This document shows, piece after piece, positions 12,001 to 15,000 of a stretch of 23,056 bases of DNA; position 1 is the stretch's first letter, and every line of letters starts with the position of its first letter. Source of the stretch: a virus. Its lineage: Duplodnaviria; Heunggongvirae; Uroviricota; Caudoviricetes. A program made the position numbers. The DNA lies in IMG/VR virus record IMGVR_UViG_2695420651_000007; one strand, given 5' to 3'.

Positions 12001-15000
12001 TGCGTTCATGTGGATCCATTTCGCCCTCAGCAACCGGCGGTGGTAACCCCATAAATTCAGTCAGAATATCGGTCAACCGGTATAGCTTGAGTTTGTCATG
12101 TCCACCAGCGGGACGAATGTTTTTCAGTCTTGCCACGACAGTCTGGCGGTGCAGACCAGATAAAGCCGCCAGTTGATTAATATTCAGCACCAGGTTTTTC
12201 AACTCATGATCCATATTTCCTCCGGAGAGCTTTAAACATGCATCGTGCGAACAACTTTAAGAAAACGCGTTCGATGTCGAACAAAAAACACTCAACTCGA
12301 CATACAAAAAACAAATAACCATTAATAATCAATAAGATGCAAAGATGATGGTGGCCGATAAAAATGCAAAAACTAGCCTTTTTCCGCGACGCTCCCGCCC
12401 CGTGGCAGGCCACCCCACCGGGAGGAGCCGTCAGCCTGAAAGCCATGACGAACGTCTGATACAGCCTTTGCATGAATGGCATCGGGATAATCCAGAAAGG
12501 AATAGCATCGACCCACAAGAATCTGTGTGAGTGTCCTGTTTCTTCCACCCCCGCACAGGACTGGCGAGCATGAGGGACAAACCCGCGAATCATTAGCGCG
12601 GTAAAAACCCGGTGTGCATCGTTTTTGATTATTCCCGCACACTCGCGCAGAAGGAGTTCCCCGTCGGGCTACGGTCATGGTTAATGCGGGAATACAGCGA
12701 CGATACAGCGCATGATGTGTCAGGCTTGAATACCTTTATCCGTTAAAAGGGATATCAGTTAAGTTATCCCGTGTAGGGTATAAGCCATTATCAAAGCCAC
12801 TCTGTAGGGAGTGGCTTTTGTAATGGCAATAAAAAAGCCCCGCGAATGCGAGGCTAAATCCAGGTATTTTTAATGACTGGCTCTTATCTCAACGCAGCCC
12901 CTTACCGCGCGCCAGATGCTCAATATCAAGCATCAGCAATGAGATGTTTAACCATGATTCACTCCAGAAGTGAGCACCACCCTGTCTACAGAGCCAGATG
13001 TGAAGGATGATGAGTAAAATTATCGCTATCATCGAAGGCATTGCGTCCTGATGTATTCCTGAAGCGTTCTCAGTGCTGTTTGGTCGCGGATAATTCCGTC
13101 CCGGATACCGAGAACGTTTCGTCCAGCAACTGGAGAGAGTTCGACGGTGGCATCATTGCCCATGCCGGAGGCGCTGGAGGTTTCGTCTGAGGATGGCACA
13201 GGGCATTTTCCTTTGACGAACACCCGACCACCATTATCAAGCTTGCGCCGAAGAGCATCATTTTTAGCTTTCGCATCAGCTAACTCCTTCGTGTATTTAG
13301 CATCGAGTGCATCAGCAGCACGCTGGCGCTGCTGCATGTCAGTAATGGTGGCGGTCGCCTGCTTCAGCTCACTGACTTTTTTATCACGCTGTTCTTTATA
13401 GGCGATGGCGTTATCACGGTAATGATTAACCGCCCATGACAGGCAGACGATGATGCAGATAACCAGAGCGGAGATAATCGCGGTTACTCTGCTCATTGTT
13501 GCCCCCACAAACAGACTTCACGCTCAATCTCGCGGCGAGTCATCAGCCCTTTCCATTGCTTACCGCCAGCGTATGTCCAGCGCCGTAGCTGATCACATGC
13601 GCCTTTGATATCACCCTGGTTTATTTTGCGAAGAAGCGTCGATGTTCTGAAATTACCAGCGCCCACGTTGTAAACGAACGAGTAAAGAGCGCCGCGCGTT
13701 GTTTCCGGTATATCGACTTTGATGTACGGGTTAATTTGTCTGGCGACCGTGGCAAGGTCTTTATTCAGGAGGGCTTTGCATTCTGCTTCGGTATACGTTT
13801 TACCGGGCATGATGTCTTTTCCGGTGTGTCCGTGACATACAGTCCATACGCCAACGATATCTTCGTATGGTATGTAGCTGACACCTTCCAGGCCATCGTC
13901 ACCACTCGGACCAGTGATGAGCACAGACGCTATGGCAACAGCCCCACCACCAATAGCAGCAGCAACAGCCTTGCGTAATGATGGCGACATTATTCACCTC
14001 TCGCAGCCTTACGCTTATCTTCTTTAATCTTGAAATAAAGGTTTGTCAGATACGTCAGCAAGCCAAACACCAAGCTACCCAATACGCCTATTGCCACCCA
14101 CTGGGATGGGGAGACTTTGTCCAGCAACTGCAGTAGCCAGTATCCCGTCCCCACCGCTGACGTGGTGTATGACACACCTGTTGTTATTTTTTCCATCTGG
14201 TACATACCCCGTCTCCCGTTATCCGGAAGCTGACAACAATAAAAAGCCACCAGTTAATTCCTGATGGCCCTGATGCATAAACGTCATAATACCTGACTGT
14301 TATGATTGACAATAATGATAATGTTTATATAGAAAGGTTCCCGATGTGTGTTACATATCATTTCTCCACGGGGAATATCCCCACGCCAGCGCAGACTCTT
14401 TTACCCGTTCTCTTCTGCGCTGGCTCTTTTTTATTATGCTGCTGCATTTACCTCTGGCACCATGCTTTCTATCTCAACACAATACGTGGTACTTCTTGTA
14501 ACCAATATCATAACGATTAATCGACATAGAATTTCTCCCGTGTACAGGAACAGAGTTAAAAAGCCGGAACCGGAATCAAATCACAGGATGACCATCTGCC
14601 AGTGGCAGGTCATAAAAAAAAGGCCGCGCCATGCGCAGCCAGAACTCACAAGGAAAATGATAGAAGGAAATAACATTAGTGATGTACGCATGGCGCCTCC
14701 CGCTAAGTTCTGCAATGATCAAACAGAACTCGCTACGTGCCCTTAAAACTCGATCATTTAGCCCCTCCAAGGAGGATTCACCATGCGGTTGATTTTTTAA
14801 TAAACAGTAAACAAAAAAGTCAAGAATTATTCATTCTGTTCTTTCATCATCGGCCACAGCAATACCACAATGCCGCAGACCAGAGCGCCATCAGTCAGTA
14901 CCAACATTATCCTGCTGGTGAAATCCATCATCACCATCACTAAAAGCAGGATCACAACAGCAAGCAGACACAGTTTATAAAACAATGTTCAGGAAACGCA

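Follow-up and report, generated by a model that had tools for sequence, protein, structure and literature searches.

What does the plus strand encode just upstream of the lysis genes of a lambdoid prophage, in an interval where the late operon runs on the other strand? The question is raised by a 23,056-nt stretch of caudoviral DNA (IMG/VR record IMGVR_UViG_2695420651_000007), referred to below as the window; all coordinates are positions in it, and the lysis genes lie on its minus strand. An earlier note, made from the sequence alone, had proposed here a plus-strand small RNA (sRNA), or possibly a Cys-rich hydrophobic peptide, and had known of no described element at this position. The element is already known, however: it is EcOnc32, an sRNA catalogued in 2014, the function of which is uncharacterised. 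Taken as a whole, the evidence makes it probable that EcOnc32 is a ~91-105-nt Hfq-dependent sRNA carried by lambdoid prophages of pathogenic Escherichia coli, which acts in trans on entC and is a relative of the sRNA Esr41.

Identity with a Catalogued Hfq-Bound RNA

The segment 14200-14800 is 100% identical to the corresponding parts of two known prophages, Sp3 of enterohaemorrhagic E. coli (EHEC) O157:H7 Sakai (NC_002695.2 901812-901212) and PP4 of enteropathogenic E. coli (EPEC) E2348/69. Sakai coordinates can be converted by the relation Sakai = 916012 - x, in which x is the window position. Among the orphan peaks obtained by Hfq crosslinking and analysis of cDNA (CRAC), EcOnc32 is listed at Sakai 901574-901662(-) within Sp3 (Tree et al. 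2014, Mol Cell 55:199; PMC4104026, Table S2), which converts to window 14350-14438(+). The peak passed in five of five CRAC datasets, its area under the curve (AUC; 64.7 M) is second to that of AgvB1 (77.8 M) among the entries EcOnc01a-33, and a Northern band of ~112 nt was reported (PMC4104026). Reverse-complemented, the published Northern probe, ATATTCCCCGTGGAGAAATGATATGTAACACACAT, matches 14344-14378(+) with 0 mismatches, and this is its one match in the window, where 0 chance matches are expected. Since the probe matches plus-strand RNA only, the detected RNA is the predicted plus-strand transcript. The absence of a described element, as assumed in the earlier note, is thereby contradicted, and the sRNAs PasA and PasC fill the same slot in sister prophages.

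In the same table, EcOnc32 is flagged with an 'x' in the 'Rho Term' column, and the paper speaks of 31 sRNAs with predicted terminators (PMC4104026). Exactly 31 unflagged entries come before the flagged ones in Table S2; the flag most probably means that no terminator was predicted for EcOnc32, consistent with the 18-nt loop of its terminator hairpin. The searchable main texts hold no mention of EcOnc32, its locus tags, the protein accession of the locus, or its sequence strings; EcOnc32 is named in supplementary tables only. EvrS is a different sRNA, located in CP-933N.

Expression and Hfq Dependence in EPEC

Three RefSeq records annotate the locus as a 132-aa 'hypothetical protein' (WP_012578864.1; E2348C_1013; ECs_0817) that starts at GTG 14348 and spans 14348-14746(+), and because of this annotation the reads of the sRNA were counted under E2348C_1013 in the EPEC study. 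In its data from ligation and sequencing of interacting RNAs (RIL-seq), E2348C_1013 is the second RNA of every chimera (fraction 1.0 in both conditions), has a U-tract length of 6, and takes part in eight interactions, with 900 chimeric fragments in the activating and 304 in the non-activating condition (Pearl Mizrahi et al. 2021, PMC8550237). The second-RNA coordinates, 1060613-1060672(-), correspond to window 14374-14433(+), with the 3′ end on the U-run, and the coordinates 901660-901579 from crosslinking, ligation, and sequencing of hybrids (CLASH) correspond to window 14352-14433. It was not called a Pas sRNA because only four of the eight interactions involve a coding sequence (CDS) or 5′ untranslated region (5′UTR), which is below the 67% filter of the authors.

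In the activating condition, E2348C_1013 shows a baseMean of 2064 and a 7.5-fold drop in the delta-hfq strain (log2 fold change -2.91, adjusted p = 1e-23), a value close to that of PasA (-2.78), and its baseMean in the non-activating condition is 220 (PMC8550237). The adjacent holin and endolysin genes reach 5.4 and 3.9 in the activating and 1.2 and 0.6 in the non-activating condition (PMC8550237). As the sRNA is abundant while the late genes are silent, it should be made from its own promoter, independently of late transcription. Collectively, published data on the identical sequence establish the RNA, its strand and 3′ end, its binding to Hfq (CRAC and RIL-seq), its Hfq-dependent abundance (delta-hfq), and its chimeras with entC in two pathotypes. 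The plus-strand sRNA that had been proposed from the sequence is thus borne out by CRAC and Northern data in EHEC and by RIL-seq as well as RNA-seq in EPEC.

Predicted Pairing with entC

The 5′UTR of entC is the strongest specific RIL-seq partner of EcOnc32, with 263 chimeras, an odds ratio of 14, and p = 4e-165 (PMC8550237). Independently, RNase E-CLASH in EHEC (Table EV7) recorded ECs0632 (entC) 706302-706362 joined to EcOnc32 901660-901579 at a false discovery rate of 5e-6; the read consists of entC ...GGAUGAUAUGGAUA / ...GUGGAGGAUGAUAUGGAUA joined to EcOnc32 CAUAUCAUUUCUCCACGGGGAAU. Full-length duplexes computed with ViennaRNA duplexfold were long, loop-ridden, and no better than those of shuffled sequences, and they were replaced by local complementarity and short-segment duplexes. 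The local complementarity score for entC was 42; 300 shuffles averaged 21.4 and never exceeded 36. Nucleotides 15-30 of the sRNA (14354-14369) would pair with entC from -15 to +3, over the Shine-Dalgarno sequence and the AUG, and the single-stranded stretch UUUCUCCAC is predicted to cover both; nucleotides 21-30 have an unpaired probability of at least 0.9. At the same site, the computed duplex is -23.0 kcal/mol for EcOnc32 and -16.1 kcal/mol for Esr41. According to these models, the most likely effect of the pairing would be a block of entC translation initiation.

For the other partners recorded in the activating condition (the rpoS region, dnaK, and the nleB pseudogene region), the complementarity is at chance level, and these RNAs are not claimed as direct targets. 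The best non-significant matches of the rpoS initiation region, the dnaK start, and the nleB pseudogene region all fall on the terminator loop ACCCGUUCUC, which could be a second seed or an Hfq contact.

Probable Relationship to Esr41

A permissive Rfam scan of 14150-14900 returned a match to Esr41 (RF02676) at 14345-14434(+), which covers the full-length model (1-74) with 32.3 bits (E = 3.9e-4), compared to a gathering score of 102; at gathering thresholds, no Rfam match was found anywhere in the window. The covariance alignment joins the 5′ hairpin, CAU-UUCUCCAC/CAUUUUCUCCAU, the GGGG/CCCC hairpin, and the CGCC(A/G)GC terminator, in which EcOnc32 carries a 25-nt insertion relative to Esr41. 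Together with the minimum free energy (MFE) fold, this alignment recovers in EcOnc32 the Esr41 architecture of a 5′ hairpin, a single-stranded UUUCUCCA seed, a GGGG/CCCC hairpin, a GC-rich terminator, and a U-tail. Global alignment of the transcribed bodies gave z = 5.5 with Esr41 (0 of 1000 shuffles as good), 2.6 with PasC (driven by the terminator), and 1.6 with PasA. A blastn search with Esr41 as query did not find EcOnc32. The motif TTGACAA lies upstream of Esr41 as well; promoter homology to esr41 or pasA/pasC beyond this motif was considered and rejected as not significant.

The iron genes chuA, cirA, and bfr are validated targets of repression by Esr41, which pairs in the vicinity of their ribosome-binding sites (Waters et al. 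2017, PMC5286369). In our duplex calculations, the Esr41 stretch CAUUUUCUCCAUGGGG pairs with chuA CAUGGAGAA, and EcOnc32 attains nearly the same energy on the chuA site (-21.7 vs. -21.5 kcal/mol for Esr41); as far as such models can tell, the two regulons may overlap. Judged from sequence comparison, EcOnc32 appears to be a diverged relative of Esr41, Esr41-like rather than Esr41 itself, and EcOnc32 occupies the PasA/PasC slot. A recent preprint noted only that matches to the Esr41 covariance model are frequent near PasD and treated such loci as losses of PasA/PasC (Zhu, Shabalina & Storz, 10.64898/2026.05.13.724894).

Diverged EcOnc32-type elements were also seen at a distance of ~340 nt to stx2B, without an intervening esterase gene, in the Stx2 prophage of STEC306 (L009 601-742) and the Stx2i prophage of CFIAFB20190172 (L010 601-676). 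The Stx2i copy has a 5′ part nearer to Esr41 (GCATCCACTTTCTCC) and no recognisable TTGACA promoter, and may be an intermediate or a decayed member of the family.

Candidate Fur Control and the Proposed Mechanism

The spacer of the putative promoter contains a sequence, AATAATGATAATGTTTATA, that matches the Fur-box consensus GATAATGATAATCATTATC at 15 of 19 positions and suggests a candidate site of iron control. When the local 60 nt were shuffled 5000 times with dinucleotides preserved, six shuffles reached 15/19, and a shuffled window should contain 0.04 such matches. In the type-B allele, which is diverged, a 15/19 match is likewise present, 3 nt further upstream, despite the different sequence, and the promoters of Esr41, PasA, and PasC give 12/19 at most. 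A second 15/19 match, GATGATGAGTAAAATTATC, lies in reverse orientation at 13006-13024, just past the 3′ end of the Rz open reading frame (ORF; 13029-13508), and may be due to chance, given the same expectation of 0.04 per shuffled window.

In the mechanism that we infer, for which the promoter, the 5′ end, the Esr41 link, the seed, repression as the direction of regulation, and Fur control all come from the present analysis, a sigma-70 promoter belonging to the sRNA gene itself (TTGACA-16-TATAGA) would drive EcOnc32 transcription counter to the late operon, without dependence on Q. Transcription would stop at the 11-bp hairpin with its 18-nt loop and the following U-run. The predicted fold of the RNA consists, in the order seen in Esr41, of a 5′ hairpin, a single-stranded linker of 10 nt (AUUUCUCCAC), a small GGGG/CCCC hairpin, and the terminator. 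On Hfq, the pyrimidine-rich linker and the 3′ arm of the first hairpin would pair with entC, which leads the operon for enterobactin biosynthesis, over its Shine-Dalgarno sequence and start codon, and this pairing should block translation initiation; other Esr41-type targets would probably be paired too, and the Fur-box-like sequence suggests that expression is iron-responsive. In its most specific form, in which EcOnc32 is a Fur-repressed, phage-borne Esr41 relative that mainly shuts down entC translation, thereby throttling enterobactin synthesis of the lysogen, and may share chuA with Esr41, the proposal is tentative and rather less likely than not.

Weighing the Alternatives

Several observations weigh against a trans-acting, Esr41-related regulator of entC. 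Half of the eight RIL-seq interactions lie outside a CDS or 5′UTR, and chimeras show proximity on Hfq or RNase E rather than a regulatory outcome. The most frequent partner is not entC but the rpoS initiation region, with 537 chimeras at an odds ratio of only 2.8, and three of the four activating-condition partners have complementarity no better than shuffles. The Esr41 score falls short of formal family membership, the promoter adds no significant similarity to it, and covariation could give no support, as the two main alleles and three singletons vary too little and MAFFT/RNAalifold misaligned Esr41. Moreover, the Northern size of ~112 nt exceeds the predicted length of ~91-94 nt, and the 5′ end, placed by prediction, may lie up to ~20 nt further upstream. 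As for Fur, the higher expression in Dulbecco's modified Eagle's medium than in lysogeny broth fits iron control but is common to PasA, PasC, and PasD1 and is not iron-specific, and a Fur-repressed repressor of a Fur-repressed operon would be a non-obvious circuit.

The product could instead be a peptide, either the small hydrophobic Cys-rich one, similar to a type I toxin, that starts at ATG 14344, or the 132-aa protein from GTG 14348. The ATG with AAGG (14335-14338) 5 nt upstream does open a 58-codon frame bearing a hydrophobic CCC segment, as the earlier note had it, and WP_012578864.1 is annotated on the plus strand by the Prokaryotic Genome Annotation Pipeline. The RNA that is observed cannot accommodate either frame, however: the 58-codon frame stops (14518-14520) 85 nt beyond the RNA 3′ end at 14433 and the 132-codon frame 313 nt beyond it, and the AAGG is upstream of the predicted 5′ end. 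The comparison covered 15 different forms of the locus, found in E. coli genomes, in phage Evi, and among 67 IMG/VR contigs. ATG 14344 is absent from every allele that is not of the window type, these reading GATATG with the ATG in another frame; the length of the T-run and a T insertion in the stem alter the frame further, and the CCC segment is encoded 3′ of the terminator and T-run, where the variants have unrelated residues. Thus, a conserved ORF contained within the transcript, as expected of a type I toxin, was not found among the alleles compared. Pfam gave no match for the 58-aa product and only a sub-threshold chance match for the 132-aa product, which is mostly antisense to PasD1 and an esterase remnant. 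We consider a peptide product extremely improbable; the 132-aa ORF (14348-14746), which is composed of EcOnc32, the esterase-remnant antisense, and the PasD1 antisense, is almost certainly not a gene. The preference for RNA in the earlier note was therefore justified.

If the product is an RNA, it could also act in cis, pairing with the late transcript upstream of the holin and setting lysis timing by cleavage or attenuation in the manner of oop and cII, as had been suggested. EcOnc32 is fully complementary to any Q-antiterminated late transcript, is convergent to PasD1 and the late genes, and is kept in the sequenced phage Evi and beside stx2B in Stx2 prophages; the window prophage retains its terminase, portal, capsid, and tail genes, and the unrelated PasA and PasC occupy the same antisense slot in sister phages, from which it appears that position could matter. 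The complementarity part of the proposal stands. However, 135 nt separate the holin start codon (14205-14203) from the sRNA, which overlaps no ribosome-binding site or intact CDS and touches with its tail only a non-functional esterase remnant, in contrast to the overlap with a target seen for oop. The oop-like role in lysis timing is not supported: in EPEC the sRNA is abundant while holin and endolysin are silent, and its steady-state role is therefore not on the late mRNA. Furthermore, the four activating-condition partners are all trans-encoded, Esr41 in SpLE1 has no holin annotated within the 1 kb examined around it, and the slot is a known insertion site of accessory genes (morons). Cis-antisense action is accordingly unlikely, though it may occur during induction. 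We regard as somewhat less probable still an Hfq-occupying sponge or 'anti-sRNA' like AgvB and AsxR, which would titrate Hfq or a core sRNA. Its attraction lies in the very high Hfq occupancy, given the rank of the CRAC AUC, and in ~808,000 of ~18.2 M counts, comparable to GcvB, in the RIL-seq column that we take to be 'other interactions of RNA2'; significant mRNA partners are few for such abundance, half of the partners being neither CDS nor 5′UTR, and the same moron region has yielded anti-sRNAs. Yet none of the four activating-condition partners is a core sRNA, the extended and specific entC pairing was found twice independently, and the closest relative, Esr41, is a conventional mRNA repressor. 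Rfam gave 12 matches for 14150-14900 at a cutoff of E = 10, none of them to the ~42-nt 3′ domain of AgvB and AsxR (RF02702/RF02703). Trans action of EcOnc32 on entC remains the explanation that we prefer.

Promoter, Fold, and Terminator of EcOnc32

The features of the locus are collected in Table 1. The promoter hexamers TTGACA and TATAGA with their 16-nt spacer are present as had been described; the hairpin is a perfect repeat, although its stem comprises 11 bp rather than the 10 bp given earlier, with 18 nt between the arms. Only seven inverted repeats of the terminator-stem class occur in the whole 23-kb window. The 94-nt RNA 14340-14433 is predicted to form three hairpins with a folding energy of -34.9 kcal/mol; none of 200 dinucleotide shuffles (-15.95 +/- 2.77 kcal/mol) folds as well (z = -6.84). 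These features exceed chance. A consensus promoter and terminator scan reports neither the TTGACA/TATAGA promoter, because it requires a final T in the -10 hexamer, nor the hairpin, because it admits loops of up to 8 nt only. Among its hits is an alternative promoter, CTGACT-18-GATAAT, which is a better fit to the ~112-nt Northern band but is not conserved in type-B alleles and was retained as a caveat only.

The promoter and hairpin are kept in other alleles, as the earlier note had asked to be checked; the alleles are too alike for the covariation statistics that it had also called for. Substitutions in the terminator stem are G.U-compatible or give a 1-nt bulge, the G->A change at position 14346 in other alleles converts a G.U pair of the first stem-loop (SL1) to A-U, and the terminator loop core CCCGTTCTCTTCT / CCCGUUCUCUUCU (loop 14396-14413) is invariant in all five compared alleles. 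The U-rich tail is likely the site bound by the proximal face of Hfq, and it adjoins the esterase-remnant stop codon, an arrangement shared with PasC.

Table 1. Features of the EcOnc32 locus and its surroundings in the window
Feature	Position	Strand	Remarks
Alternative promoter CTGACT-18-GATAAT	14293-14322	+	From consensus scan; overlaps the TTGACA/TATAGA promoter
-35 hexamer TTGACA	14306-14311	+	Putative promoter; kept in Evi, OkiPb01715, and STEC306 alleles
Fur-box-like sequence AATAATGATAATGTTTATA	14311-14329		Candidate; in promoter spacer; 15/19 match to GATAATGATAATCATTATC
-10 hexamer TATAGA	14328-14333	+	16-nt spacer; TATAAA in type-B alleles
EcOnc32 sRNA	14340-14433	+	5′ end predicted at 14340-14343; 3′ end observed at 14433
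Stem-loop SL1	14343-14359	+	7 bp, GUU loop; in MFE and centroid structures
Seed region CAUAUCAUUUCUCCAC	14354-14369	+	14360-14369 predicted single-stranded
Stem-loop SL2, GGGGA-AUA-UCCCC	14370-14382	+	From fold; the Rfam covariance model aligns it to the corresponding hairpin in Esr41
Inverted repeat arms GCCAGCGCAGA / TCTGCGCTGGC	14385-14395 / 14414-14424	+	11 bp, 100% complementary
Intrinsic terminator hairpin	14385-14424	+	Perfect 11-bp stem; unusually large 18-nt loop
T-rich tail TCTTTTTTATTA	14425-14436	+	Directly 3′ of the inverted repeat
U-rich tail UCUUUUUUA	14425-14433	+	RNA 3′ end by RIL-seq and CLASH coordinates
Class II (S21-type) holin	13990-14205	-	Followed by signal-arrest-release (SAR) endolysin and Rz
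nanS-p-type sialate O-acetylesterase remnant	14433-14527	-	~25 nt of the gene start joined to ~90 nt of its end, out of frame; aligned to the ends of the phage 434 esterase
PasD1/EcOnc13 sRNA	14614-14786	-	NC_011601 1060260-1060432(+) maps here; convergent partner
Two membrane-protein morons	15071-15829, 14827-14985	-	Lambdoid late region
Q82-type antiterminator	16000-16689	-	tR′-like terminator at 15954-15933

Late-Region Context

Phage 434 and many Stx phages carry a 1.85-kb nanS-p gene between the morons and the holin, of which the window retains the remnant listed in Table 1. Lineages L008, L009, and L010 have other end points of the esterase deletion, and the last ~75-90 nt, abutting the sRNA terminator, are always kept. 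The remnant from 14433 and the holin from 14205 delimit the interval between esterase stop and class II holin, antisense to the late operon, that defines the PasA/PasC slot, and the EcOnc32 gene is therefore in the same slot as pasA and pasC. A distant blastn search of the phage collection with EcOnc32 returned Evi only; phages 434 and 2B8, which bear PasA/PasC-type modules, belong to the same collection and were not returned.

The convergent neighbour PasD1 is located by its probe CATGCGCAGCCAGAACTCACAAGG, which equals window plus strand 14631-14654, and by its terminator, GGCTGCGCATGGCGCGGCC-T8, at 14640-14622; the 3′ ends of PasD1 and EcOnc32 are 181 nt apart. PasD1 matches STnc100 with 37.7 bits, where 47 is the gathering score; a link between PasD and STnc100 is proposed in the 2026 preprint, and the match agrees with it. 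Like the similarity to Esr41, that to STnc100 is visible in the permissive scan only.

In phage 434 (L003 400-680), the interval from esterase stop to holin contains, on the strand opposite the holin, two tandem modules of promoter plus terminator. PasA is the first of these, as judged by a match to the PasA probe, and the terminator of the second corresponds in position to the window hairpin; this second terminator would explain the 236-nt 'minor' PasA read-through species in EPEC. On the minus strand of the window, a terminator-like hairpin, AGGGCCATCAGGAATTAACTGGTGGCTTT-TTATTG, lies at 14243-14271, 38 nt upstream of the holin start, and matches a terminator annotated in phage 434; Q-modified polymerase presumably reads through it. 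An LpxR lipid A deacylase moron is found at 17164-18123(+).

Distribution and Significance

EcOnc32 is present in 603 of 5426 complete E. coli genomes (about 11%), usually in one copy, and 564 are at least 99% identical; for comparison, 2,105 PasA matches have been reported across complete prokaryotic genomes. One GenBank phage, Evi, carries it as well, as do 67 IMG/VR contigs. The GTDB genomes, taken as one for each species, gave no match in an exact-pattern scan, and none was found outside the E. coli and phage records searched.

The prophage in the window is a mosaic. Its nin-Q-lysis part (11878-21933) is 99.7% identical to an O157:H7 Sp3-type prophage, and the part coding for tape measure, capsid, portal, terminase, and tail (519-12828) shares 97.8% identity with E2348/69 PP4; the prophage has retained its head and tail genes, in which it differs from the O157 Sp3-type prophage. 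The view of the window as O157 Sp3 with nle and bio genes nearby was rejected on this direct comparison.

The finding is a correct rediscovery, from sequence alone, of a catalogued sRNA and not a new kind of element, and it is ordinary for its setting, as the lambdoid prophages of EHEC and EPEC are known for Hfq-dependent sRNAs at the moron site. What would be new here are the Esr41 link, the entC ribosome-binding site as a target in two datasets, the candidate Fur box, and the recognition of the RefSeq ORF as spurious. EcOnc32 is among the most heavily Hfq-bound RNAs of two major pathotypes, yet it was overlooked because three genome annotations place the spurious 132-aa ORF over it and because its 18-nt terminator loop defeats standard terminator descriptors. 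Public data point to a testable target, the entC ribosome-binding site, and to a family link with Esr41. If the entC and Fur links are true, prophages would be rewiring the siderophore production of their hosts by way of a small sRNA family, and EcOnc32, as a Fur-repressed repressor of entC, would be a prophage-encoded brake on the host's own siderophore pathway.

Comparison with Known Systems

Lambda oop is a short, constitutively promoted phage RNA with an intrinsic terminator that is transcribed against an operon; it overlaps the 3′ end of its target CDS, cII, and acts on that mRNA via RNase III. EcOnc32 is likewise short, terminator-ended, and counter to an operon, but it is Hfq-bound, has documented trans partners, and overlaps no intact CDS or ribosome-binding site. 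AgvB and AsxR (Tree et al. 2014) resemble it as prophage sRNAs at the moron site that are antisense to the late operon, form convergent pairs, and show very high Hfq occupancy. They differ in being 51-60 nt long, in sharing a 42-nt 3′ domain, in lying upstream of the esterase gene, and in having core sRNAs as partners, whereas the activating-condition partners of EcOnc32 are mRNAs and intergenic regions.

PasA and PasC (Pearl Mizrahi et al. 2021, PMC8550237; Zhu, Shabalina & Storz 2026 preprint) agree with EcOnc32 in slot, in orientation, and in the position of the U-tail at the esterase stop, and all are Hfq-dependent and more abundant in the activating condition. The terminator base of EcOnc32 (GCCAGCG...CGCTGGC) and the downstream sequence TTATTATGCTGC resemble those of PasC and the second module of phage 434; the transcribed bodies are without demonstrable homology, and the seeds differ. 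The EcOnc32 of Sakai is identical in sequence to the element in the window, the difference being that the window prophage is a mosaic and not Sp3 itself. Esr41/EcOnc14 (Rfam RF02676; Sudo et al. 2014; Waters et al. 2017, PMC5286369) has the same order of elements as EcOnc32. Both have a single-stranded CAUUU(U)CUCCA(C/U)GGGG stretch, a CGCC(A/G)GC terminator, and a U-tail, and both are Hfq-bound; the EcOnc32 seed CAUAUCAUUUCUCCAC aligns to the Esr41 stretch CAUUUUCUCCAUGGGG with one seed base different (C for U). The first hairpin differs in sequence, the EcOnc32 terminator is extended by its 18-nt loop, and Esr41 resides in SpLE1 rather than in a lambdoid late region. The targets of both are related to iron, namely chuA, cirA, and bfr for Esr41 and, as a candidate, entC for EcOnc32.

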